Notes under the pieces: generated by a model
What the model was told of the DNA's origin: nothing
Databases searched by the model: none
The model's input: only the letters and a program-made list of their open reading frames with translations
Translations under genes and position numbers: made by a program
DNA from: Nanobdellota archaeon
Lineage (GTDB): Archaea; Nanobdellota; Nanobdellia; Pacearchaeales; GW2011-AR1
Reading direction: 5' to 3'
DNA length: 23,596 bases
Assembly: GCA_038044285.1 (NCBI GenBank)
Contig: JBBTAH010000031.1
Location: 1-23,596, forward strand
Shown here: piece after piece, positions 13,632 through 23,596 of the stretch
How positions within the stretch are numbered: the first letter of the stretch is position 1
Layout: every line of letters begins with the position of its first letter

Positions 13632-15113
13632 ATGCATGATTATTCAAAATTAGGCTTTAAAGCAGGACTTGAGATTCATCAGCAACTTGACACGCCGAAA
13701 TTATTTTCTGGGGCGCCGTCGTTTTTAAGAAATGATGAGCCTCATTATAGAATTGAAAGAAAATTGCACGCTGTTGCTGGAGAAACTGGTGTTGTGGATG
13801 AGGCTGTTGCCCACGAGGCTGCACTTGGAAAAACATTTGTTTATGGGGGTTATCGCGATTCTGTTTCTTTGGTTGAACTGGATGAAGAGCCAGCGCATGC
13901 TGTGAATAGTGAGGCGCTTGATGTTGCATTGACTGTCGCTTTATTGCTTAATTGTGAGATTTATCCTGTTACTCAAGTTATGAGGAAGACGGTTATTGAC
14001 GGCTCCAATACTTCGGGATTTCAGAGAACTGTTTTGATTGCACATGATGGATTTGTTGATACTTCATTTGGAAATGTGCGTGTTGCAACTGTGTGTTTAG
14101 AAGAAGATTCTGCGCGTTTGATATCGCGCGAGAAAAATAAATCTGTTTATCGTCTTGACAGACTTGGAATTCCTCTTGTTGAAATTGCGACTTATCCTGA
14201 TTTGCGAAATGCCGAGCAGGTTAAAGAATGCGCTTTGAAATTGGGAGAGATTTTGAGGGCTTGCCGCGTGAAGAGAGGAATTGGCACAATTAGACAGGAT
14301 GTTAATATTTCTGTTTCTGGGCATGATAGAGTTGAGATTAAAGGATTTCAGGATCCAAAAATGATGATTACTACGATTGATAAGGAAATTGAAAGACAGC
14401 TTTTGGATTTGAAAAATAAAAAATTGTCTGGAAATTCGAAAGGCGCCAGAGATTTATTGCGCGGCGATGTTAGAAACGCTTTGCCCGACGGCTCTTCGGA
14501 GTTTTTGAGGCCGATGCCAGGCGCTTCGCGAATGTATCCTGAAACAGATTTGCCTCTTTTAAGAATTGGGCTTGAAAAAGTTAATAGGATTAAGAAAAAT
14601 TTGCCCAAGCTTAAATCGGATATTCGCGATGAACTGAAAAAGAAAGGACTTACTGATGAGATGATTAAACTTGTTTTGTCTGAGAATTATTATTTTGATA
14701 GCTTTGAGAATTTGTTAAATATTTATAGCAAAGATGCTAACTTGATTGCTAAGATGGTTGTCTTGTGGCGAGAAGAGATTGCTACTAAAACTGGAAAGAC
14801 GATTGACGGCGTAATGAAAGTTTTACACGAAAGAGTTTTAGAGCAGATTCTTGAATTAGTGCGTGACGGCAAGCTGGAAAATGGCGATGTCAAATCAGTC
14901 ATGATGAAAATTGCAGAAGGTGTTAAGTTTAGCGATGCTGTTAAAATTGATAAAATTAGCGATGATGAAGTTGAGATTTATGTTAGGGAAATTGTTAAGG
15001 AAAAACCTGGAATGCGGGCGAATGCATATATGGGAATGGTGATGGCTAAATTTAAAGGCAAGATTGACGCGAAGAAAGCGATGGAAATTATAGATAGAGT
15101 TGTTGGAAAATGA
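13632..15113 (+). CDS. gatE: glutamyl-tRNA(Gln) amidotransferase subunit E, short form (493 aa)
   Basis: YSKLGFKAGLEIHQQLDT, SLVELDEEPAH, MRKTVIDGSNTSGFQRTVL, LDRLGIPLVEIAT, RGIGTIRQDVNISV and LRPMPGASRMYPETD are GatE-type blocks, and gatD lies directly upstream. The start is set at ATG 13632 rather than the track's TTG 13623, based on TATA spacing. Confidence 0.85.
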   Translation: MHDYSKLGFKAGLEIHQQLDTPKLFSGAPSFLRNDEPHYRIERKLHAVAGETGVVDEAVAHEAALGKTFVYGGYRDSVSLVELDEEPAHAVNSEALDVALTVALLLNCEIYPVTQVMRKTVIDGSNTSGFQRTVLIAHDGFVDTSFGNVRVATVCLEEDSARLISREKNKSVYRLDRLGIPLVEIATYPDLRNAEQVKECALKLGEILRACRVKRGIGTIRQDVNISVSGHDRVEIKGFQDPKMMITTIDKEIERQLLDLKNKKLSGNSKGARDLLRGDVRNALPDGSSEFLRPMPGASRMYPETDLPLLRIGLEKVNRIKKNLPKLKSDIRDELKKKGLTDEMIKLVLSENYYFDSFENLLNIYSKDANLIAKMVVLWREEIATKTGKTIDGVMKVLHERVLEQILELVRDGKLENGDVKSVMMKIAEGVKFSDAVKIDKISDDEVEIYVREIVKEKPGMRANAYMGMVMAKFKGKIDAKKAMEIIDRVVGK

Positions 15114-15193: not shown

Positions 15194-15214
15194 GATGGTT
15201 TTTTGTTGTTTTTA

Positions 15215-16939
15215 ATGAAAATGGATTTGGACGATGCTGAGTCGGTTGATAGTGTACAGATTATTCTTCCTATTTGGGATAAATTGAAAGTTAGAAATGC
15301 GATGAGGCATTTGGGAGAATTTATTAGAACTTCTCCTATACGGGGACGGGTTAGTATTGATGATGACGGAGGAAGTAGTTCGATTTTTTTAAAGGCGAGA
15401 GACAGGGGTGCTGGCAGGTCTTTGTTTCAAGCTCGAGATTTATTGAGAAAAGCTGTTTTAGAAATAGGAATTGATAGTGGTAATGTTATTGTTCATCCTT
15501 ACAATGACTCTTCTGGTAGAAGGACGTCTTCTAGTGGAGTTAATAGTAATGAAAAGACTTTGAGTGCTATGCAAGCCCAGATAATTGATTTGAGGGAGCA
15601 ACTTGTTGGGAAGATGAATGAGATTGGTGAACTGCAAACATATCAGGCAGATCTGGAAGCTCGCTTGGTCAGCGCTAATGCGCCAATTTCTAGAAGAGGG
15701 GATTTGCATATTTTGGAGTCTGTTAGACTGGGGAGAGTTAAAGAATTAGCTGAGACTTCAAGAGCTTATGCTGATGCTGAAAGAGATTTTAAGTATGAAG
15801 AGGGAAAGGACCATAACCAGCAGCTTATTGATGCAGCAAGAGCTTCGCGCAGTGATTTTGAGAAAACTGAATTTTATGCGCAGAATTCGAAATTAATAGA
15901 AAAAGCCAGAGAGGCAATTGTGCGGGCAGAGAATGATCCTTTTGTTAATGTTGAAAGAGCTAAGAATTTGCTTGCTGAAGTTGAGGCTAAAAAAACTGAG
16001 CACGATAATAAAAAACAAAATACTGAAAAAATCAGAGCTGCGCTTGACGGGAAGAGGGTGCTTTATCAAGTTATTTCTGAAGAAGACGGCGAGAATTACA
16101 AAATTAGTGTTGTTATGCCAATTCAATATCAAGAAGATATGAAGAATCATTCTGCTTTGGAGCTGGATTTGATTGCTCATGTGCATGATCAGTGGAATAC
16201 TCTTAGGTCCGATACTCCAATTAAAGGATTTAAACGCGAAGGAAGACTTGGAGTTGTTGCTTATAATTATTTTATACCTCGCACAGGTATGTCTCCTGAA
16301 AAAATCAGAGCTGTTGAAGATAAAATAGTTAATGCACTATTTAATTCTCAGAGAGATTATGCTTTTGGAGCCTTTGGCTTGAGAGTTGATTTGGAAAAAA
16401 TTACGAGCACTGCCGGACAAAGATTAGAAGGCGAGGTTTATTCTTCAGAACCTCGGGCTGTTGCTGATGATGCTCCGAAGAAAAGAGAGAGAACTTCTGC
16501 AGAAAAAGCAACGATAACAAGACCAGAAGGAATGAAATTTGGAGGAACAACTTCACTTGAGTATGGTGGGGGGATAACTGCTGAGCAAGTTGATGTCAGG
16601 GTTTCAGAGTCTTTAGCAGCAATAGATAGAAATGTAAATTATCAGGGCTTGCCAAATATTAGTGGTTGGGGAAGAAGTACGAGATCACAAGCTTTAGTTA
16701 TGGGGGCTATTCGGATTTTGGCGGAAAGCGGAAGAACATTCTCATCTCAAGAATTGTTGGAAGCTTTAAAAAAAGTGATTCCAGAATTGGACAATTATTT
16801 AGGCAATGAGGTAGCCAACAATAATTTGAGAATTGGTTTGATTCACTTTAATAAGAAATTTGGGATGCTTGAATTTATAAAAGATCCCGCGACAAGAAGA
16901 GTTAGCTATAAAATAAAGGAGCAATACAGAAGACAATGA
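15215..16939 (+). CDS. hypothetical protein (574 aa): N-terminal globular domain, Ser-rich linker, long predicted coiled coil, central domain, possible C-terminal winged-helix
   Basis: A long uninterrupted ORF. The start is set at ATG 15215 (the track uses TTG 15203). Residues roughly 120-290 are heptad-like and charged (LSAMQAQIIDLREQLVGKMNEIGELQTYQADLEARL ... AKNLLAEVEAKKTEHDNKKQNTEKIRAAL). The last 85 or so residues (SQALVMGAIRILAESGRTFSSQELLEALKK...RRVSYKIKE) look wHTH-like to me, but this is a weak call. I recognise no family. Confidence 0.7.
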   Translation: MKMDLDDAESVDSVQIILPIWDKLKVRNAMRHLGEFIRTSPIRGRVSIDDDGGSSSIFLKARDRGAGRSLFQARDLLRKAVLEIGIDSGNVIVHPYNDSSGRRTSSSGVNSNEKTLSAMQAQIIDLREQLVGKMNEIGELQTYQADLEARLVSANAPISRRGDLHILESVRLGRVKELAETSRAYADAERDFKYEEGKDHNQQLIDAARASRSDFEKTEFYAQNSKLIEKAREAIVRAENDPFVNVERAKNLLAEVEAKKTEHDNKKQNTEKIRAALDGKRVLYQVISEEDGENYKISVVMPIQYQEDMKNHSALELDLIAHVHDQWNTLRSDTPIKGFKREGRLGVVAYNYFIPRTGMSPEKIRAVEDKIVNALFNSQRDYAFGAFGLRVDLEKITSTAGQRLEGEVYSSEPRAVADDAPKKRERTSAEKATITRPEGMKFGGTTSLEYGGGITAEQVDVRVSESLAAIDRNVNYQGLPNISGWGRSTRSQALVMGAIRILAESGRTFSSQELLEALKKVIPELDNYLGNEVANNNLRIGLIHFNKKFGMLEFIKDPATRRVSYKIKEQYRRQ

Positions 16940-18489
16940 CGGAGAAAACAGAAAAAAAAGAACGAAGCGAAGGAACATTAACAGCGAGGCAACTTATTAA
17001 GGACAGGAGTTTGGAAAGTTATACTGATGAGGTTTTTAGAGTTATTCATGATAGGGGCATGAACTCGCGAAGATTATACTCTGGAGATATTGAACTTATT
17101 TTAGGATATGTTACAGGAGATAGAAAGAGAAAATCAGCTGATTTAGCTGATGAATCTGAACCTGTTCAGATGCCTACAACTGACAGCTCAAAGCTGATTT
17201 TGAAAGTAAGAGATCCGGTTAGAAAAGTAACTAGATATATGTTTGCCGGCGATTTGGAGAATCTTGACTCTGATTCTGACAGAGAAGATGTTTTCCTTCA
17301 GGATTTTGTTTCTAGACTTGAAATGTCTTTAGATTATAGGCCGCCGAGTAAGCGTGGAGGCGGCGGAGGAGGAGGAGGAGGCGGTGGCGGCGGAGGTAAA
17401 AAACGAGAAGAAGTCAGAATTGCTGGGAGAGTTGCCGCTTATTTGTTAGATCATAGAGATGACCAAGGACTGGTTTCTTTGTTATATGGAGAACCAAGAA
17501 ATGATTCTGTTAATTTAACGAACAGTACAGCGCTTTTAGAAGGAATTGCTTCTAGTAGAGTTATTGATCTTTTGAGAAGTAGAGGGCTTGAGATTGAAGC
17601 ATTGACTCCTGAAGGACTAATGAATTTAGCGAAGAAAGAGAAGGCGCGAAGGTTTGCGAGAGATGTTGCCAATTATTTCCATGAAGGAAATGGTCAGTTC
17701 ATTAAGATTGGAGAGAATGGTTTTAGAATAGAATGGGACAGGGCAGACGATGCAAAAGATATTATCCGATGGCTTGAGCAGAATATAGAATTTTCTGAGA
17801 AGGGATTGCCATTTTATATGAATTGTGTTAAGGCGAAGTTAGAGGGCCAGCTTTCTGCACGCCATGGGCCTGTGAATGTGAGAACGTTGTTTAAGCATTG
17901 GACAATGGCTTCTTCCCATTATGAATTTGTGAGAGCCCATAGCTACACTAGGCCGATGCTTAGAGAGAATGCGCGGAAAATTGACTTTGATGATTTGGCT
18001 GCAAGAATAGTTAAAGATTTTACAGGGAATCCAAAATATAATGAAGGAGATGCTAGAAGATTTATCGGAGGATTGTTTGTTGCTGGAAAAATAAATCTTT
18101 CTGATAGAACAGACGGCGCCCGTACAGATTTTGAGACATCTGAAAGAACGGGGAACTATGCTGATTATGTTATTGTAAAATATAATGAAATTGGAGAGCT
18201 TGTACAAAGAACAATGGGGAGAATTGTAGCCGGGAAAGCAAAAAAGAGCGTTAATCCTGCTGACGCTTCACTTTATTCATCGGTGAAAGAAGGAAGATTG
18301 GAAATAAAAGACAGAGCAGATGCAAGACATTTAGCCAGAACATTAAGGGCGCAGTTAACTGACACTGAAAGGAAGAAAATTACTGATAGAGTAGTTGCTA
18401 ATAGAGTATTATCTGACCAAGGAGTCGATAAAATATTTGCTTTGTATGTTTGGAATGAACGTGATAATCTTGTAAAGAGATATTCTTAA
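16936..18489 (+). CDS. hypothetical protein (517 aa) with an internal poly-glycine linker
   Basis: Its ATG overlaps the stop of the upstream gene (ATGA at 16936..16939), implying translational coupling. A 14-codon Gly run flanked by basic residues (PPSKR-G14-KKREE) separates a 140-aa N-terminal region from a 360-aa C-terminal region. I recognise no family. Confidence 0.7.
   Translation: MTEKTEKKERSEGTLTARQLIKDRSLESYTDEVFRVIHDRGMNSRRLYSGDIELILGYVTGDRKRKSADLADESEPVQMPTTDSSKLILKVRDPVRKVTRYMFAGDLENLDSDSDREDVFLQDFVSRLEMSLDYRPPSKRGGGGGGGGGGGGGGKKREEVRIAGRVAAYLLDHRDDQGLVSLLYGEPRNDSVNLTNSTALLEGIASSRVIDLLRSRGLEIEALTPEGLMNLAKKEKARRFARDVANYFHEGNGQFIKIGENGFRIEWDRADDAKDIIRWLEQNIEFSEKGLPFYMNCVKAKLEGQLSARHGPVNVRTLFKHWTMASSHYEFVRAHSYTRPMLRENARKIDFDDLAARIVKDFTGNPKYNEGDARRFIGGLFVAGKINLSDRTDGARTDFETSERTGNYADYVIVKYNEIGELVQRTMGRIVAGKAKKSVNPADASLYSSVKEGRLEIKDRADARHLARTLRAQLTDTERKKITDRVVANRVLSDQGVDKIFALYVWNERDNLVKRYS
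17356..17397 (+). repeat. GGN microsatellite (14 consecutive glycine codons)
   Basis: It reads gga ggc ggc gga gga gga gga gga ggc ggt ggc ggc gga ggt in frame. This is the most GC-rich 42 nt I noticed in the window. Confidence 0.95.
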
Positions 18490-18579: not shown

Positions 18580-19020
18580 TTATTTTTCTTCGTGCCAATT
18601 TTCCGGCTCTTTGATGATGCCGTAGCCAACATATAATTCATCTATGCCGTCTTCTTTGTCAGGAGTGAATCTTTCTTTTACTCTGTAACGCACATCTTCG
18701 ACTTGGTCTTCTAATTTTACTGTGAAAGGAACTTCAATTACTCCGCTTCTGTTTCTAATAGCTGAATCATGTATTGAAGTTGTAAAAATCGGTTGTTCTG
18801 GGTTGCCGCGCCGTACGTCTCCAGCTTTTTGAAACATACTTAGAGTTGCTTTTTCTTTATCTGCATCTACAAAATATCCTATAATTCTTTCTGTTCCTTC
18901 GTATAATGCGGGATTTCCTGGCTGATATTCAACGTAAACTGCCGGAAAAACAATTTCTATTAAATCTTGAGGCTTCGCATCGCTCATTATTTCTCTTAAT
19001 GGTTTATATGCTTCGCTCAT
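18580..19020 (-). CDS. hypothetical protein (146 aa)
   Basis: Complete ATG ORF whose start overlaps the stop of the upstream gene (ATGA at 19020..19017). I recognise no motif, and the sequence looks mostly beta-strand-like. Confidence 0.65.
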   Translation of the reverse strand: MSEAYKPLREIMSDAKPQDLIEIVFPAVYVEYQPGNPALYEGTERIIGYFVDADKEKATLSMFQKAGDVRRGNPEQPIFTTSIHDSAIRNRSGVIEVPFTVKLEDQVEDVRYRVKERFTPDKEDGIDELYVGYGIIKEPENWHEEK

Positions 19021-19499
19021 GCTCTTACAGCTTTGAAATAAGCAATTCTGTTTGCAGGACTACCCTTTGGAATTTCATCAACAATTTGGAGACCTTGTCT
19101 GGCGTAATCTATTGCTTTTGGGGTGAAGTATAGTCCATTTTCACCGACTCTTGCGCCTGCTAGCTGACCGAAACCAAATTTTTCACAGATTGCTTTAGGA
19201 CCTAAGTCTTCACTGCCTGCAACTATTTTCCTTAAAGTTATTAGGCCTGTTTTTCCGTCGGCATGAGCTGTAATTACGGGAATATTTCCTCTTCTGCTTG
19301 AGAAAACTCCGATTGAACCTGGAGCTAGGGAAAACAATTCACTGTCTGTGTCTCTTATTGCTGCGTCCCATGCGTCGACTTCTGTTAAAACACCCGAATA
19401 AGCATTACTTGCTGAACTATAATTAAAAACTCCGCTAAACATTAAATCTCTTGCAACTTGTTTAGAATTTCTATTCCAAAAATCTTTGTCAAATGTCAT
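19017..19499 (-). CDS. possible 3-methyladenine DNA glycosylase (AAG/Mpg, PF02245)-like protein; the start is uncertain (ATG 19499 gives 160 aa, TTG 19697 gives 226 aa)
   Basis: By eye the sequence follows the AAG pattern. FWNRNSKQVARDLMFSGVF compares with FF..PA..LAR.LLG..LV. GVLTEVDAW compares with G.IVETEAY. LFSLAPGSIGVFSS...GLITLRKIVA compares with MF..PG..YVY..YG....VLIRA.EP. LGPKAICEKFGFGQLAGARVGENGLYF compares with SGPgKL..ALgI....G.dl.....l.i. This similarity starts right at Met 19499, which also has a TTTATAAA box at the standard 25.5-nt spacing. The track ORF extends 66 codons further, to a TTG that overlaps the upstream gene. Confidence 0.4.
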   Translation of the reverse strand: MTFDKDFWNRNSKQVARDLMFSGVFNYSSASNAYSGVLTEVDAWDAAIRDTDSELFSLAPGSIGVFSSRRGNIPVITAHADGKTGLITLRKIVAGSEDLGPKAICEKFGFGQLAGARVGENGLYFTPKAIDYARQGLQIVDEIPKGSPANRIAYFKAVRA

Positions 19500-19520
19500 A
19501 ACTTTGTAATTAATACAGGC

Positions 19521-19528
19521 TTTATAAA
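19521..19528 (-). promoter_or_regulatory. TATA box upstream of ATG 19499
   Basis: TTTATAAA, a palindromic 8-mer, with its centre 25.5 nt from the A of ATG 19499. The spacing is identical to that of the other promoters in the window. Confidence 0.45.
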
Positions 19529-19559
19529 TTTTGTGGTTACTCCTTATTTTTACAATATG

Positions 19560-19608
19560 TCGAAGTGCTTCTTGATAACTCCAGCCTTTAGGCTGGAGAG
19601 CACTTCGA
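19560..19608. repeat. GC-rich compound inverted repeat (stem-loop with 10-bp and 8-bp stems)
   Basis: The plus strand reads tcgaagtgct-(tcttgataa)-ctccagcc-ttta-ggctggag-agcacttcga. The outer arms 19560..19569 and 19599..19608 and the inner arms 19579..19586 and 19591..19598 are perfectly complementary. The loop is 4 nt and there is a one-sided 9-nt bulge. Confidence 0.9.
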
Positions 19609-19689
19609 GCATCCAAAAATCGAGCACCAATCAAACCACATCTTTTAAGGTGTGGTGGTGCATCGATTTTTTGATTATCGTGCGCTTTT

Positions 19690-21081
19690 TTATTCAATAA
19701 CTATCAGGCTCTTGACCATTCCTTTAACTTGACCTACTTTTTTTCTAAGCCTGAAATGCTCCAATGTTTGGCTTAAGAGTTTTCTTTCTACTTCATTTGT
19801 TTCTTCGTCTTTTTCTTTTTCAATTTCTAATATTGTTGCATTCTGGTCTTTTACAAATTGCTCTTCATATAATGCTCTTTTTTTTGTCAACAAAATTGTT
19901 GCTATAACATCGCTTTGCGCGAAAACTACTGGGTTTATTGCTGTACAAATATCTTTCAAGCATCTTTTTGCGTCGTAGTTTACTGCGTTGTTTGCCCTTG
20001 GAATCCTGCAACTGCCGAGATATCTACCCAAAGACCTTTTTCTTTTTGTCATATCTTTTAAAAGTTCCCTGTCTTTTTCATTTAAAGTTGACAATCTTGA
20101 TGCAAGCAGAAGGTCGCTTCCGTCTATTCCTTCGTCCTGCATTAATGCAAGATATCCGAACATATTTTCCTGCACGAGTTTTTCAACAAATCTTATTCTA
20201 TCTTCTTCTCTTATTCCTTTTTTCCCCACTTCTTCGTCTAAAGTTACAGCTCTTGATTTTATTGGATCTTCTAGAAGCTCAAAGAAGAAATCTCTCCATC
20301 TGACTCCGTGCCTTTCTTTTAGTCTTCTTAACATTGGCCGGTATTGGCCCCCGATTCTTTTTTTGGCAAATGCGTTATCTTTTATGTCAAATCTGTCAAG
20401 AAATCTTTCAATGCCTCTTTTGTAATTGGCATCGTCTCTGTAAGTTTCGTACGCTTTTAGGAATTCAGATGCCGCTTCTCTTGCTAGGATTCTATCTTCT
20501 AAAATATCAACGACTCTTTTTTTGGCTTTATCGCTTAATGTTTCTAAGACCAGGCCGGTAATTAATTCTGGATTTGAGACTATTACGCTTAGAATTCCGT
20601 ATCTGTTGAATCCGTCGACACCTTCCATATATTTAAGCGCTTCAAGGTATTCGTGATTTTTCAGCTCTTTTGTTCTCTCAAGGTGCTCTATTACTCCGTT
20701 TAATAAAGGAGAATATGTTCCGACGCTGTTCCCATTTACTAAGGTTTTGTCGTGAGCGTTCCAAGATAGCAGGAAATTATCTAAGGTGAATCTAGGGTCA
20801 TATCTTAGAACTTCATAATTTGCTAAGAAATCGTCGACTGCATGCGGCAGTCCGTTTGTTGCGCAATTTAATGCGCAGTAATCTAAGATTAGATTTCTTT
20901 GCTCTTCATTCAGGCCTGATTCTCTAAGAGCATCCAACATGTCTGGGTGCGGTTCAAAAATTTCGCCTTGAAGATAATCATTAAAGTATCTTCTAAACCT
21001 GCTGACTACTGCTATTCCTTCTTCACTTAAGCTTGAATATCTTTCATTTGCTCTTGCCTCTAAACTTTTTATTTCACTCAT
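19690..21081 (-). CDS. hypothetical protein (463 aa), mostly alpha-helical in appearance
   Basis: Complete ATG ORF that starts 1 nt after the stop of the SNF2-methyltransferase gene (TAAAATG). A G8 run lies 8-15 nt upstream of the ATG. I recognise no family. Confidence 0.7.
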   Translation of the reverse strand: MSEIKSLEARANERYSSLSEEGIAVVSRFRRYFNDYLQGEIFEPHPDMLDALRESGLNEEQRNLILDYCALNCATNGLPHAVDDFLANYEVLRYDPRFTLDNFLLSWNAHDKTLVNGNSVGTYSPLLNGVIEHLERTKELKNHEYLEALKYMEGVDGFNRYGILSVIVSNPELITGLVLETLSDKAKKRVVDILEDRILAREAASEFLKAYETYRDDANYKRGIERFLDRFDIKDNAFAKKRIGGQYRPMLRRLKERHGVRWRDFFFELLEDPIKSRAVTLDEEVGKKGIREEDRIRFVEKLVQENMFGYLALMQDEGIDGSDLLLASRLSTLNEKDRELLKDMTKRKRSLGRYLGSCRIPRANNAVNYDAKRCLKDICTAINPVVFAQSDVIATILLTKKRALYEEQFVKDQNATILEIEKEKDEETNEVERKLLSQTLEHFRLRKKVGQVKGMVKSLIVIE

Positions 21082-21082
21082 T

Positions 21083-23596
21083 TTATTTCCCCCCCCTTCT
21101 TCTTGTCATGAATCCTTCTATTATTGAGACAATTTCTTCAGGAGTTCTTACTGTCTTTTGTGCAGGTTCTATTGAGGGCCTTTGTGCTTTTCTTGAACTT
21201 ATGACTGCTCCGTTATTAACGAATTGGAATTGGGTGCATAGCTCTTCACGATATCCTTGAGGGCTGTTTTTTCCTGATTCTCTTATATCGCCGTTTCCAG
21301 GATTTGAGTATAATGATTCTGAGCTTAAAATAAAAAATCTGTCTAACGAACGGTCTTTGTACGAGGCGGGCGGATTGTCGTGGGTTTTTTTGACTACAGT
21401 GACATAAACTTCATATTTATCTGATAGTCCGTCAATTGCTTTTACGACGCCTGTTCTTTCTGGGACTGGCTCGAGACCAATTCTTCTTAATCCTTCCTGC
21501 AATAACTCGCTTCCTGTTTCTTCTACAAGCTTTGACGGGAGAGTTATAATTCCGTATCCTCCTGGTCTGATTATTCTGCTTGTTTCTAATGCCATTCTTT
21601 TTCTTCCGCCGTTTTCACTATTTCCGTAATGAAGAACTAACGAAAGAACTGCTAAGTCATATTCACGTGATTTTACTTCTTTTGATAAATCTTCTATGTC
21701 TGCGACCAGTGTTTCAACTCCTATTCCGAGAGCTTCCGCCTCCCTTTTTCCTATTTTTAACTGATGGGGATTAATATCAACGCACAAACTTGGCCTTCTT
21801 AATTTTCTTGAAACTGTCGCCGGAGAGCCGAGGTCAATTATTTTTTCTAATTTGCTTCCTTCTTTTCCTTCTATTTCACGAACAAGACCTTCAATTAATC
21901 TTGCTGTGTGGGCAGAGTACGAGCTTTCCCATTTAAAGTTGTAAGCCTGCGCATAAATCTGCGCATGGTCTCCTTCTGCAAGATAAGTTCTATTTTTTTC
22001 TGACCCTTTGTTCAACATATGGCCGCTCATCATTCTTATTTGTGAGCGTGCGTTCATCATGTATCTTTTAATAGGTGTTTGTGCGACAATTGGTTTTTTC
22101 TTGGCAAGCGCTTCTTTTTGCTCTTCTGATAATTCGCGGCCGCCTTCTGCCTCTTCTATTCCTGCTCTTTTTATTTCTTCTGTGTCTTCGTATATTCCTT
22201 GCTCAACTGTTCCGCCCATTATTAATGTGTGCACATTTACTTCTTTTTGCTGTCCTCTTCGTGCAATTCTACCAATTGCCTGGTCATTCAAGCCAGGAGA
22301 GAAATCTCTCATGATGAACACGCAGTTGTTTGCTGCGTGCAAGTCCTGTCCTTCTCTGATTGAATCAATGCTTGCGACCAGGACTCTTTTGTCTGGGTTT
22401 GTCTGGAATTCAAGTCTTCTTTTGTCTCTTTCACTGTATCTCTCTTTTCCAGGATCTGAGCTTACTGTTCCGTCTATTCTTATTGAGCCGTGTTCTGCGT
22501 ATCTTTGTTCTAATCTTTCTGTGATTCCATTTCTTAATTTTGTCCAAATTACTATTTTCTCTCCTTTTTCCACTGCTTCTTTTACTAGTTTATCCAGCTC
22601 TTTGTATTTTGTTGAGTCTATTCTTTTTGTGGCTTCCAGCAAACCAGGATTTGCTTGGAAAAATTCTTCCATTTTTCTTCTTGATTTTCCTTCGTGATTT
22701 TCCGGCAAAAGAAGAGTCCCGTCTGTTGCTGCTAATCTTGTTAGGACGAATTTTCTTCCCATTCCAAATTCTTTGTGGTCTAATACACTCCAGTATAATC
22801 TTTCTTCGTCTGGACTCATGCTCAAATATGTCGGAGGATTGATATTTACTTTAGGAACTCCTGGAAGATTTCTGAATGTTGTAACTGGCTCTTTGCTGAA
22901 CCTTCTTAAGAAGAGACGTATTAATCTTGGATTGCCTTCGTATGCTGTTTTGAAATTTTCTGCTGTTGGGAAATTTTCAGGGTCAAGCAAAGAAGCTAAT
23001 TCTCCGATGTCATCTAAATTGTCTGGAAACGGATTTCCTGTCATGGCGTAGAACCTGTCTGCACCTAGAGCGAGCTTTCTTACTGCTTTTGAGCGAAGAG
23101 CTTCTGGATTTTTTGCGTTGTGCGATTCGTCTAAGCATAACATCATCTGTTCTTGTGATGTTTCTACTGCCGAAAGAATTCTGTCTGCGAGAGTTACCTG
23201 ATCGTCTGTTATTCTTGGCTCTTCTCTTCTTAATCTTGCTATTTCGTGAGCTATATCGTCGGGGGTTTTGTTGTCAACTGTTCTGAAAAGTGCGTCGTAA
23301 CTTATTAATGTCCAGCCCAAAGTTCCATCTGCGATTCCTTTTTCAAATTTTTCTATTGCTTCTTTTCTGCTTCCACTTGTTATTGTTAAGACTTCCTGCC
23401 TGTCTTCAAGATATTCTCTTAATTTTGCTTCCCAGCTACTCAAGACAAAATTAGGACAAACTATTATAGGATTAATTTTTTCTCCGTCTAAGACTAATTG
23501 CTCTAACGCGAGTTTTGCTTTTATTACTGGTGCTGTTTTTCCTGCGCCTGCGCCGTCACGTATTAATAAGCGGCCGCGCTCTAACATTTGTGTTGT
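21083..23596 (-). CDS. SNF2-family ATPase/translocase fused to a C-terminal class-I (Methyltransf_11/25-like) methyltransferase-fold domain; 5' end probably beyond the window
   Basis: The SNF2 motifs are present: I DGAGAGKT, II LDESHNAKN (23120..23131 encodes DESH), III AMTGNPFPDNLDDIGELASLL, and V-VI SIREGQDLHAANNCVFIMRDFSPGLNDQAIGRIARRGQQKEV. The C-terminal region (about 21383..21970) follows the Rossmann methyltransferase order: KIIDLGSPATV (atypical motif I), LCVDINP, LVADIEDL, YDLAVLSLVLHY, RIIRPGGYGIITLP. The frame stays open from Met 23587 to the window edge, and only 10 residues precede motif I, so the N-terminus is likely truncated. Confidence 0.85.
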   Translation of the reverse strand, partial: TTQMLERGRLLIRDGAGAGKTAPVIKAKLALEQLVLDGEKINPIIVCPNFVLSSWEAKLREYLEDRQEVLTITSGSRKEAIEKFEKGIADGTLGWTLISYDALFRTVDNKTPDDIAHEIARLRREEPRITDDQVTLADRILSAVETSQEQMMLCLDESHNAKNPEALRSKAVRKLALGADRFYAMTGNPFPDNLDDIGELASLLDPENFPTAENFKTAYEGNPRLIRLFLRRFSKEPVTTFRNLPGVPKVNINPPTYLSMSPDEERLYWSVLDHKEFGMGRKFVLTRLAATDGTLLLPENHEGKSRRKMEEFFQANPGLLEATKRIDSTKYKELDKLVKEAVEKGEKIVIWTKLRNGITERLEQRYAEHGSIRIDGTVSSDPGKERYSERDKRRLEFQTNPDKRVLVASIDSIREGQDLHAANNCVFIMRDFSPGLNDQAIGRIARRGQQKEVNVHTLIMGGTVEQGIYEDTEEIKRAGIEEAEGGRELSEEQKEALAKKKPIVAQTPIKRYMMNARSQIRMMSGHMLNKGSEKNRTYLAEGDHAQIYAQAYNFKWESSYSAHTARLIEGLVREIEGKEGSKLEKIIDLGSPATVSRKLRRPSLCVDINPHQLKIGKREAEALGIGVETLVADIEDLSKEVKSREYDLAVLSLVLHYGNSENGGRKRMALETSRIIRPGGYGIITLPSKLVEETGSELLQEGLRRIGLEPVPERTGVVKAIDGLSDKYEVYVTVVKKTHDNPPASYKDRSLDRFFILSSESLYSNPGNGDIRESGKNSPQGYREELCTQFQFVNNGAVISSRKAQRPSIEPAQKTVRTPEEIVSIIEGFMTRRRGGK

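Follow-up and report, generated by a model that had tools for sequence, protein, structure and literature searches.

Defence systems such as DISARM (DrmD with DrmMI/II), Hma and Druantia II encode an SNF2-type motor, a methyltransferase and accessory proteins together, the motor and the methyltransferase being separate proteins. A different logic is found in DarT/DarG, where one enzyme writes a replication-blocking modification on DNA bases and its partner removes it. In the PabI restriction-modification systems a restriction glycosylase gene is regularly paired with a methyltransferase gene, and these provide a precedent for a methyltransferase and a DNA glycosylase acting as an immune system (PMC10273834). 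In the 23,596-nucleotide stretch of DNA analysed here (hereafter the window) we found a module that resembles each of these in part. Like DISARM, Hma and Druantia II it encodes an SNF2-type motor and a methyltransferase alongside accessory proteins, but here the two are joined in one polypeptide, DrmA, DrmB, DrmC and other signature genes are absent, and an AAG-like protein is encoded instead; unlike in the DISARM-type systems, the methyltransferase matches Methyltransf_11/25 and carries no DPPY or PCQ motif. The write-and-remove logic of DarT/DarG may be shared by the module, although there the modification is ADP-ribosylation and not methylation, the folds are unrelated and no translocase is involved. 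As in the PabI systems, glycosylase-like and methyltransferase genes occur together, and the effector step could be the removal of a base instead of a cut in the phosphodiester backbone; however, R.PabI has the HALFPIPE fold whereas the gene X product has an AAG fold and not a HALFPIPE, M.PabI is a conventional DNA methylase, and the PabI systems have no motor protein (PMC10273834). The fusion recurs beside a glycosylase of DNA-repair-like type and up to three proteins without a recognised function, and together they suggest a machine, not described before, that marks or defends DNA.

The fusion gene, gene A, encodes an SNF2 motor (dsDNA translocase) and a C-terminal class-I SAM methyltransferase in a single polypeptide. 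Its features in the window are:

21083..23596, minus strand: gene A, the SNF2-methyltransferase fusion ORF (ATG at 23587, TAA at 21083-21085)
22937..23566, minus strand: SNF2 N-terminal lobe, residues 11-220 (Pfam PF00176, motifs, alignment with 1z63)
22250..22609, minus strand: C-terminal helicase lobe (residues 330-449), which holds motif VI (Pfam PF00271, motifs)
21377..21979, minus strand: class-I SAM methyltransferase domain with an N-terminal helical cap, residues ~540-740 (Pfam, AF2 model, Foldseek, profile comparison with the PDB)
21815..21835, minus strand: methyltransferase motif I, DLGSPAT, residues 588-594 (alignment with the family consensus DLGSGPAT)
21086..21376, minus strand: C-terminal tail, residues 741-837 (alignment of homologues, AF2 model)

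From ATG to TAA gene A spans 21083..23587 on the minus strand (834 codons). Its frame runs on without a stop for 837 codons to the window end at 23596, which means that the gene is cut at its 5′ end and that the N-terminal domain of ~85 aa found in homologues falls outside the window; the identical 837-aa NCBI entry is named 'SNF2-related protein, partial [Nanoarchaeota archaeon]'. Both lobes of an SNF2 family ATPase scored above the curated Pfam cut-offs (SNF2-rel_dom PF00176, 52 bits against 24.9; Helicase_C PF00271, 34.6 bits against 23.5), and motifs I, II, III and VI are all intact (GAGKT at 17-21, the Walker A motif; DESH at 156-159; TGNP at 186-189; QAIGRIARRGQ at 439-449). The best solved sequence relative of the motor is the SNF2/Rad54-like helicase 1z63 of Sulfolobus solfataricus (E 2.8e-17 over residues 137-469), which is of low identity and, unlike gene A, has no methyltransferase domain. 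The tail comprises a disordered linker, a beta-hairpin that is conserved (E785, F792; 'ELCTQFQFV..GAVI') and, at its end, an amphipathic helix finishing in the basic RRRGGK.

A preliminary description of this DNA, made from the letters alone, had read gene A as an SNF2 translocase fused to a methyltransferase fold of non-DNA, UbiE/SmtA-like type, and our searches bear out both parts of that reading. The C-terminal domain scored above the Pfam cut-offs for Methyltransf_25 (PF13649, 29.5 bits against 27) and Methyltransf_11 (PF08241, 28.5 against 21.2); the alignments start only at profile position 19-25, so that the motif-I part of the profiles is unmatched. An AlphaFold (AF2) model of residues 504-837 has the standard class-I methyltransferase fold, a seven-strand Rossmann fold (mean pLDDT 82.6), and a Foldseek search of the PDB with the domain model returned 907 matches at E<=0.001. 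Among the best 50 of the 907 there is no DNA methyltransferase: they are methyltransferases that act on RNA, small molecules or proteins, and related enzymes of the class-I SAM fold such as a spermidine synthase and the cyclase SpnF. The agreement of motifs, profiles and fold goes far beyond what chance would give. The motif-IV signature [DNS]PP[YFWH] and the PC[QH] and ENV motifs are absent from all 837 residues, and Pfam N6_Mtase, N6_N4_Mtase and PF00145 gave no match to the protein. Judged by these motifs and profiles, the domain is not of the N6A, N4C or C5 DNA-methylase type. All peptides quoted in the preliminary description were located (DLGSPAT at 588-594, CVDINP at 605-610, ADIEDL at 632-637, YDLAVLSLVLHY at 646-657, RPGGYGIITLP at 677-687 and RRRGGK at 832-837), and D607, the acidic residue that follows strand 2, is kept together with the other conserved methyltransferase positions.

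In the Foldseek ranking the first structure was 2zfu (nucleomethylin/RRP8), followed by NodS, RsmG and UbiG. The solved relatives of the domain include RRP8, RsmG, RlmA, a cap methyltransferase, PKMT2 and KMT9, and the closest of them, with about equal scores, act on rRNA, the mRNA cap, small molecules or protein lysines. The best-characterised relative is Rrp8/nucleomethylin (PF05148, Methyltransf_8), the rRNA m1A methyltransferase, which was the top structural match (E 1e-8, TM 0.72 on the target) and, among the profile matches (E 0.0038 and 1.8e-11), the one of longest coverage, extending through the C-terminal '...GF..' segment; several uncharacterised Methyltransf_11-type proteins tied with it in the profile searches. 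The layout around strand 4 is similar in the two (DLAV.SL.LHYGN in Rrp8, DVAVFCLSLMGTN in gene A). PF05148 itself matched 14 of 43 family members and did not match the window protein at E<=0.1. Rrp8 carries no helicase fusion and modifies rRNA, whereas the methyltransferase of gene A is fused to SNF2.

An exhaustive HMMER protein search with the methyltransferase-domain profile retrieved 803 cluster representatives, while a word-indexed search with the same profile had found two proteins. SNF2 was also present in 42 of the 43 representatives sampled, and the named members come from Woesearchaeota or Nanoarchaeota. The SNF2-methyltransferase fusion thus forms a large family that is common in DPANN archaea and has been found so far there. 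The preliminary description had called the arrangement one that could not be placed in a described system; this holds in so far as the protein does not belong to DISARM, Zorya, Dpd or BREX, to which only its SNF2 core gave partial matches far below the NCBIfam cut-offs, and our literature searches found no published description of the fusion or of the five-gene module, but with 803 representatives the arrangement is not rare. A scan of metagenome contigs with the methyltransferase domain gave one locus (L088). A scan of genome contigs by full-length alignment, using patterns from the helicase motifs, gave only generic bacterial SNF2 helicases among the matches listed and has no bearing on the distribution of the family; in phage genomes, tblastn with the SNF2 core found only generic helicases, at ~24% identity, and none of the IMG/VR contigs encoded the methyltransferase domain.

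Gene A is followed by two genes on the same strand and faced by a convergent pair, and a short ORF lies between the two groups:

19690..21081, minus strand: gene B, 463 aa, no known domain; starts 1 nt past the gene A stop
19017..19499, minus strand: gene X, 160 aa from the Met at 19499 (AF2 model, Foldseek, weak PF02245 and NCBIfam 3mg matches)
18580..19020, minus strand: ORF of 146 aa; its start overlaps the gene X stop by 4 nt
16936..18489, plus strand: gene D, 517 aa, no domain recognised; encodes a stretch of 14 Gly (17356-17397) and is convergent with the A-B-X operon
15203..16939, plus strand: gene E, 578 aa, with a coiled coil, a core that is conserved and, at the C-terminus, a possible winged helix

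Gene B adjoins gene A in 7 loci, and in three loci besides the window the two share 4 nt; by this spacing they are predicted to be translationally coupled. The start of gene D overlaps the stop of gene E by 4 nt. The 146-aa ORF is confined to the clade of the window (it occurs also in L093), and its membership in the module is uncertain. For genes B, D and E, no reliable relative came out of sequence and profile searches of PDB, Pfam, PHROGs, PADLOC and NCBIfam; the possible winged helix of gene E is marked by a weak MarR match in one family member. Genes B, X, D and E had no match in PADLOC or PHROG. No nuclease or AP-lyase gene was found within the module. The 226-aa ORF from a TTG at 19697 is an over-extension of gene X, the homologues being ~160 aa long. 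The conserved partners, chiefly the glycosylase-like gene X with its AAG/MPG fold, had been overlooked in the preliminary description.

The AF2 model of the gene X product (pLDDT 92.1) had as its only significant Foldseek matches in the PDB nine entries of human AAG (E 2e-7 to 8.5e-6, TMq 0.65-0.76), and the next match had E>0.1. Based on this model, the product has the AAG/MPG fold and appears alkylpurine-DNA-glycosylase-like. Profiles were in weak agreement: PF02245 matched three of four gene X members (best E 0.0011) and the NCBIfam 3mg models eight of 14 (best E 2.3e-4), with no match of either to the window copy. Compared with human AAG/MPG and the bacterial 3-methyladenine glycosylase (PF02245, TIGR00567), with which it shares the fold (TMq up to 0.76), the gene X product keeps the AAG-type N-terminal segment 'F..R....VA..L', the PG turn, the Arg in 'TLRK' and an acidic-x-aromatic motif at the position of AAG Glu125/Tyr127. 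It differs in its length of ~160 aa, lacking two AAG insertions that include the His136 segment, in having Asp where AAG has Glu, and in having Arg-Arg-Gly in place of the intercalating Tyr162-Gly. The position of the catalytic Glu125 was set with a human AAG guide sequence that we assume to be correct; with this guide, each of the 14 close homologues, which form the subfamily of the window copy, has Asp or Glu there. More distant X-like proteins have R, G or S in place of the acidic residue, and therefore excision may not be the common function of all X-like proteins.

The five-gene arrangement A-B-X / E-D was found in the window and in L004, L005, L007 and L089, with flanks that differ from locus to locus, and its sizes recur: the fusion, B of ~460 aa, X of ~160 aa and the convergent E-D pair of ~580 and ~517 aa. 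In L095, from a subfamily ~31% identical, hhalign again placed three partners beside the fusion gene, in another order (B with probability 99.5, X with 98.8, D with 97.1), while the comparison of gene E with a 1003-aa L095 protein gave a probability of 17%. X-like genes also adjoin the fusion in L088 (94) and, more weakly, in L094 (68-78); in P0007/L091 the fusion is present with no clear X. The AAG-like gene thus stays beside the fusion across subfamilies that are 25-30% identical, despite changes in gene order. A toxin-antitoxin/transposase island is found in L005 only, and the other module loci, the window included, have housekeeping flanks. Recent horizontal acquisition or a provirus found no support, as G+C is uniform along the window (0.35-0.43), the window contains no tRNA and no IMG/VR contig carries the methyltransferase domain. 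Given these flanks and this composition, a housekeeping function in the lineage fits as well as defence does.

We tentatively propose, at somewhat less than an even chance, that the module couples motor-driven methylation of purines with reading or excision of methylpurines on DNA. Gene A would be the enzymatic core, an ATP-driven SNF2 dsDNA translocase with a C-terminal class-I methyltransferase. The motor would track along duplex DNA or distort it, exposing bases, and the fused methyltransferase would methylate a purine ring nitrogen (N1 of A, N3 of A or N7 of G) and not an exocyclic amine. The gene X product would then recognise the resulting methylpurine, or its absence, and either excise or shield it. 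The net result would be a system of modification and base excision by which DNA is marked, policed or disabled, most likely for telling own from foreign DNA, by a logic akin to that of the restriction-glycosylase restriction-modification systems or DarT/DarG. A more specific form of the proposal, which we regard as unlikely, is a 'methylate-and-excise' immunity found so far in DPANN archaea, which would be a class of DNA-conflict or epigenetic system not recognised before: a non-canonical, Rrp8-like methyltransferase delivered by the SNF2 motor would write a methylpurine of lesion type (m1A, m3A or m7G) on duplex DNA, the AAG-fold glycosylase would make abasic sites on foreign DNA or erase the marks on self, and the products of genes B, D and E, as new folds, would see to targeting and control. 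In the DPANN archaea, which are abundant and whose reduced genomes are mostly unannotated, the module offers a concrete, testable entry point: the five-gene set holds exactly two recognisable activities plus an AAG-like protein that would read or erase alkylated purines, and very divergent members have it. If DNA is the substrate of the methyltransferase, enzymatic DNA methylation would gain a new kind of chemistry, motor-coupled and on a ring nitrogen, and the 'restriction glycosylases' would gain a second fold unrelated to the first; if the substrate is instead a chromatin protein or RNA, gene A would encode the first SNF2 remodeller from a prokaryote to contain its own writer domain.

The latter outcome is a possibility that we rate as improbable but serious. 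Here SNF2 would remodel archaeal chromatin or an RNP, the methyltransferase would modify a protein (for example a chromatin lysine) or an rRNA or tRNA base as Rrp8 does, and X would be an ordinary repair glycosylase that shares the operon. The Methyltransf_11/25 type of the domain, with solved relatives that act on RNA, small molecules and proteins, agrees with such a role, and so do the missing DNA-methylase motif, the housekeeping flanks with uniform composition and the wide spread of the family inside one lineage. Against this, all SNF2 ATPases studied so far are, to our knowledge, dsDNA translocases, the persistence of the AAG-like gene at 25-30% identity and through changes of order is hard to explain by chance, and B and D are co-conserved as well. 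That gene A is instead a divergent member of a described helicase-methylase defence system (DISARM, Hma, Druantia II, BREX, Dpd or Zorya) seems to us extremely improbable. PADLOC did give partial matches of the SNF2 core to DrmD (8e-18), ZorD, DpdE, HmaA and BrxH, and of the methyltransferase domain to mad2 (2.4e-7), but the matches to the core span only the generic helicase lobes. NCBIfam scores of 28-50 bits fall far below cut-offs of 500-1500 (DISARM_DrmD 41.7 against 610, ZorD 39.5 against 1500, DpdE 28.5 against 500), the four neighbouring genes have no PADLOC match, none of the defining partners ZorAB, DpdA-K or PglZ/BrxC occurs in the window or in related loci, and the methyltransferase is not an N6A or C5 DNA methylase.

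Motif I bears on two further explanations, in which the methyltransferase domain or the whole gene has lost its function. The canonical loop D/E-x-G-x-G is not present in gene A: its DLGSPAT is DLGSGPAT without the second Gly, by an in-frame deletion of one codon (3 nt), whereas its relatives have the ordinary D-x-[GA]-[SC]-G-P loop. An assembly artefact is ruled out as its source, the motif being identical in three independent Hainich groundwater assemblies and DLGSPA occurring also in the sister contig L092 (78% identical). Two other family branches, with P0096 and P0097, show the same deletion, and a few further members have Ala in place of this Gly. The atypical SAM-binding loop of the preliminary description is real in the window protein and shared with L092, P0096 and P0097, but it is not a feature of the family. 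Were the domain dead, the deletion would block SAM binding or leave a SAM/SAH sensor or a structural module, and the protein would be a translocase only; the Gly that is lost is indeed the second one in the G-x-G loop that binds SAM, the Pfam methyltransferase profiles skip motif I, and stops in L001 and L092 hint at relaxed constraint in the clade. Between the window and L092, both with the deletion, the methyltransferase core nevertheless has dN 0.075 and dS 1.03 (dN/dS ~0.07), a ratio that indicates strong purifying selection. With this ratio, the recurrence of the deletion on other branches, the Gly-to-Ala exchanges and the intact D607 and other conserved positions, the domain is probably not dead, and we consider a translocase-only protein distinctly unlikely, as we do the non-catalytic reader suggested earlier. 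The loss of the Gly is probably a tolerated variant of the SAM loop that does not inactivate the domain, and its occurrence on three branches under purifying selection is a natural experiment on the shortening of class-I SAM loops. Still less probable, in our estimate very much so, is that gene A is a decaying remnant without current function in its host. Besides the motif-I deletion, such decay could account for the upstream stops in L001 and for gene D being degraded in L005, but the 834-codon ORF is uninterrupted and identical in three assemblies, purifying selection is strong, all ATPase motifs are kept and the downstream genes are intact and appear translationally coupled.

The stops themselves are three in-frame TAA codons in the N-terminal domain of the same gene in L001, upstream of the part seen in the window, and one in-frame stop directly ahead of motif I in L092. 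Recoding of these TAAs was considered and ruled out, as TAA serves as the stop codon of gene A and, with it, of 10 of the window's 16 long ORFs.

The main new result is the module context of the SNF2-methyltransferase fusion protein, encoded by gene A. Together with genes B and X it forms an operon, towards which a second gene pair, E and D, is oriented:

21083..23587, minus strand: gene A, ATG to TAA, 834 aa
19690-21081, minus strand: gene B, 463 aa, start codon 1 nt past the stop of A
19017-19499, minus strand: gene X, downstream of A and B on the same strand
18580-19020, minus strand: 146-aa ORF, clade-specific, start overlapping the X stop by 4 nt
15203-16939, plus strand: gene E, convergent to A-B-X, 4-nt overlap with D
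16936-18489, plus strand: gene D, convergent to A-B-X, 4-nt overlap with E

The A-B-X / E-D set recurs around fusion homologues on contigs L004, L005 (with D degraded), L007 and L089, and A-B is seen up to the contig end in L090. The flanking genes are different at every locus, and three of the module loci other than the window have a 4-nt overlap between A and B. That A is coupled to B, and E to D, is established, and the coupling looks stoichiometric. In L095, whose fusion protein shares only about 31% identity, B, X and D (probabilities of 99.5%, 98.8% and 97.1% by hhalign, together with hmmsearch) adjoin the fusion gene in an order and orientation differing from those of the window. An X-like gene also adjoins the fusion in L088 (94%), and two weaker copies lie beside it in L094 (68-78%); none was recognisable in L091 (P0007). 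Persistent linkage of the fusion to a protein with the fold of alkyladenine DNA glycosylase (AAG), the product of X, is established across deep divergence.

Searches of B, D and E against Pfam, PHROGs, PADLOC, NCBIfam and PDB sequences gave no reliable match; coiled-coil matches were obtained for E and, in one member, a weak MarR-type winged-helix match. No nuclease was found in the module. Four of the five full-module loci lie among housekeeping genes and not in defence islands; the sole exception is L005, whose surroundings contain ParE/HicAB toxin-antitoxin genes, a transposase and proteins with NYN and SLFN/AlbA_2 domains. The other ORFs of the window (38% G+C), named from their translations by eye, are presumably archaeal housekeeping genes, including prolyl-tRNA synthetase, an M1 aminopeptidase, and GatD and GatE, which together make up archaeal Glu-tRNA(Gln) amidotransferase. 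The 146-aa ORF has a 147-aa counterpart in L093, a sister-lineage contig, is absent from the module in L004, L005, L007 and L089, and had no family match.

We regard it as established that the gene A product joins an intact SNF2 motor to a class-I methyltransferase (MT) under selection. Above curated cut-offs, Pfam reports SNF2-rel_dom (residues 11-220), Helicase_C (330-448) and Methyltransf_25/11 (about 601-683); none of the ATPase motifs (GAGKT, DESH, TGNP and QAIGRIARRGQ) is disrupted, and all peptides cited in the preliminary description were found at their positions. As the frame has no stop up to the last window base (837 codons), the gene is truncated at its 5′ end, and NCBI lists the identical 837-aa protein as 'MAG: SNF2-related protein, partial [Nanoarchaeota archaeon]'. 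Positions 1-146 of L001, a contig of the same population, are the 146 nt directly upstream of window position 23596. There the gene A frame is homologous to the N-terminal domain of about 85 aa in relatives and carries three in-frame TAA stops (REIP*CSALLE*IEQVFGYLQDFY*RF versus NEVPYWRTLLESVKSESGSLDIFYSTRI in the family protein P0003), TAA being a genuine stop codon in the window lineage. The N-terminal domain appears to have been lost in this lineage, and translation probably begins with the ATG at 23587.

Residues 504-837 were modelled with AlphaFold2 from nine family sequences (mean pLDDT 82.6). The model has a helical cap followed by a standard seven-strand Rossmann methyltransferase core; beyond it lie a disordered linker, then a short beta-hairpin that is conserved (around E785 and F792), and a terminal helix running to RRRGGK. 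Foldseek returned 907 PDB matches at E<=0.001, led by the nucleomethylin/RRP8 methyltransferase domain (2zfu; E 1e-8, target TM 0.72) and followed by NodS, RsmG, UbiG, Coq5 and a cap-guanine-N7 MT; no DNA methylase was among the 50 matches listed. A seven-sequence MT profile matched 3sm3 (6.6e-6) and 2zfu (0.0038), and a 28-sequence profile of the wider family matched PH0226, 3dlc, 3sm3 and 2zfu, each at about 1e-11, the longest stretch being that of 2zfu. The (D/N/S)PP(Y/F/W), PCQ and ENV motifs were not found in the protein. From these structural and profile matches the domain is predicted to be a Methyltransf_11/25-type enzyme. The model, Foldseek and the profiles all bear out the class-I Rossmann fold proposed in the preliminary description, whose assignment to a 'non-DNA type' is also correct. 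Rrp8, which makes m1A in rRNA, is the best-characterised relative, not clearly separated from other clan members. Known relatives act on RNA, small molecules and proteins, and homology cannot reveal the substrate.

The Pfam MT profiles align to gene A only from profile position 19-25, so motif I is not covered by them. Six full-length homologues, 29-51% identical across the aligned region, have D-[LI]-[GAC]-S-G-P as motif I, an ordinary D-x-G-x-G, and nearly all of about 150 family representatives have D-x-[GA]-[SC]-G-P; the atypical loop noticed earlier is therefore real in the window protein, where exactly the second Gly is absent (DLGS-PAT), but is not a property of the family. Three groundwater contigs that were assembled independently (L001-L003) carry the identical sequence, and the same deletion is carried by L092, a sister-lineage contig 78% identical to the window in nucleotides and 85% in protein. 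Between these two, omega is about 0.07 in the MT core (dN 0.075, dS 1.03) and about 0.21 in the C-terminal tail. The same single-residue gap occurs in P0096 (DIAS-PG) and P0097 (DICS-PA), on different branches of a rough NJ tree. Taken together, these comparisons argue that the shortened SAM loop is a tolerated variant, present on two other branches as well. At codon 29 of L092 (1534 nt, 2x coverage) an in-frame TAA replaces the Lys of 'GSKLEKIIDLGSPA', right before motif I; a sequencing error at low coverage or a recent nonsense mutation may explain it.

A word-indexed protein search gave six fused homologues only. When 1.84 billion cluster representatives were searched exhaustively by HMMER with the MT-domain profile, 803 proteins matched at E<=1e-3, 324 of them at <=1e-10 and 59 at <=1e-30. 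The top 150 are mostly of 700-1800 aa and have the MT domain close to the C-terminus; about one in three is shorter and fragment-like. Among 43 sampled members, SNF2-rel_dom was found in 42, Methyltransf_11 in 37 and Methyltransf_8 in 14; the few named ones are 'Candidatus Woesearchaeota' or 'Nanoarchaeota'. None of the IMG/VR viral contigs encodes the MT domain, and we found no description of the family in the literature.

The AlphaFold2 model of X (pLDDT 92.1) has as its sole significant PDB matches nine human AAG entries (E 2e-7 to 8.5e-6, TMq 0.65-0.76), the next match having E>0.1. PF02245 weakly matches X in three of four members (best E 0.0011), NCBIfam 3-methyladenine-glycosylase models weakly match eight of 14 homologues (best E 2.3e-4), and NCBI annotates one homologue as 3-methyladenine glycosylase. 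In an alignment to human AAG, which serves as a guide only, X retains the N-terminal 'F..R....VA..L', an acidic-x-aromatic motif where AAG has Glu125/Tyr127, the PG turn and the 'LLRA' Arg, but lacks two AAG insertions, one being the His136 segment, and has S-R-R-G in place of the intercalating Tyr162-Gly. At the Glu125 position all 14 close homologues have Asp or Glu, whereas distant X-like proteins have R, G or S; catalysis would therefore be plausible for the subfamily of the window and doubtful for the others.

To our knowledge, the AAG fold has no established role other than to flip and excise DNA purines that have been alkylated or deaminated, and enzymes of the SNF2 family translocate along dsDNA; a DNA-directed machine is therefore the most economical reading. 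The motor would give the methyltransferase access to bases, the methyltransferase, which has no amino-methylase motif and is related to ring-nitrogen RNA methylases, would write a methylpurine, and X would read, remove or guard this mark. We infer every step after DNA binding, and give the whole somewhat less than an even chance. DarT/DarG is one of two precedents for such logic. The other is the restriction-glycosylase kind of R-M system, in which a methyltransferase is paired with a DNA glycosylase (PMC10273834). That the module is a categorically new 'methylate-and-excise' system is unlikely.

The main rival, in which a remodeller carries a writer for chromatin proteins or RNA and X is a co-located repair protein, is possible though rather improbable; known relatives of the MT domain include enzymes for RNA and proteins, and the AAG-fold partner persists beside the fusion. 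The missing Gly could mean that the MT domain is dead, which we think quite improbable given the low omega of its core between two sequences that both carry the deletion; for the same reason, and with the gap seen on other branches, the non-catalytic reader suggested earlier is possible and not favoured. A decaying gene is very improbable. Least probable is membership of a known defence system, since NCBIfam gives scores of 28-50 bits where the cut-offs are 500-1500, and the signature partners are absent. The individual domains, and helicase-plus-methylase systems as a kind, are already known. Three features appear undescribed: the union of SNF2 and a Methyltransf_11/Rrp8-like domain in one polypeptide, the AAG-fold partner of this polypeptide, which looks obligate, and a trio of conserved module proteins without detectable homology. 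The module is well defined, widespread and testable, in a lineage of poorly understood archaea.

A 226-aa ORF for X from the TTG at 19697 was rejected as an over-extension, its 66 N-terminal codons (19500-19697, minus strand) being conserved in no homologue; in fourteen homologues the protein has about 160 aa and begins with a Met corresponding to 19499. The B-X spacer (B stop at 19690-19692) is therefore 190 nt, unusually long against 37-57 nt at other loci. It contains an imperfect palindrome of about 50 nt at 19627-19676, AATCAAAAAATCGATGCACCACCACACCTTAAAAGATGTGGTTTGATTGG (as RNA, -18.8 kcal/mol, z = -3.1), with a 90%-identical copy in L093 (71-120) reversed relative to X. Its exact 32-nt core was in no other fetched locus except the same-population L001-L003; the palindrome may represent a hairpin of terminator type or else an inverted element. 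Gene D has 14 consecutive glycine codons at 17356-17397 (plus strand), then KKREE, where its homologues have a variable Lys/Gly-rich linker. At the distant L094 locus (Nanoarchaeota, 1234-aa fusion protein) the two weakly AAG-like genes (13702-14259 and 18681-19334) are separated by five more short unannotated ORFs, with a Holliday-junction resolvase (Hjc) gene downstream, and the locus may be an expanded version of the module.
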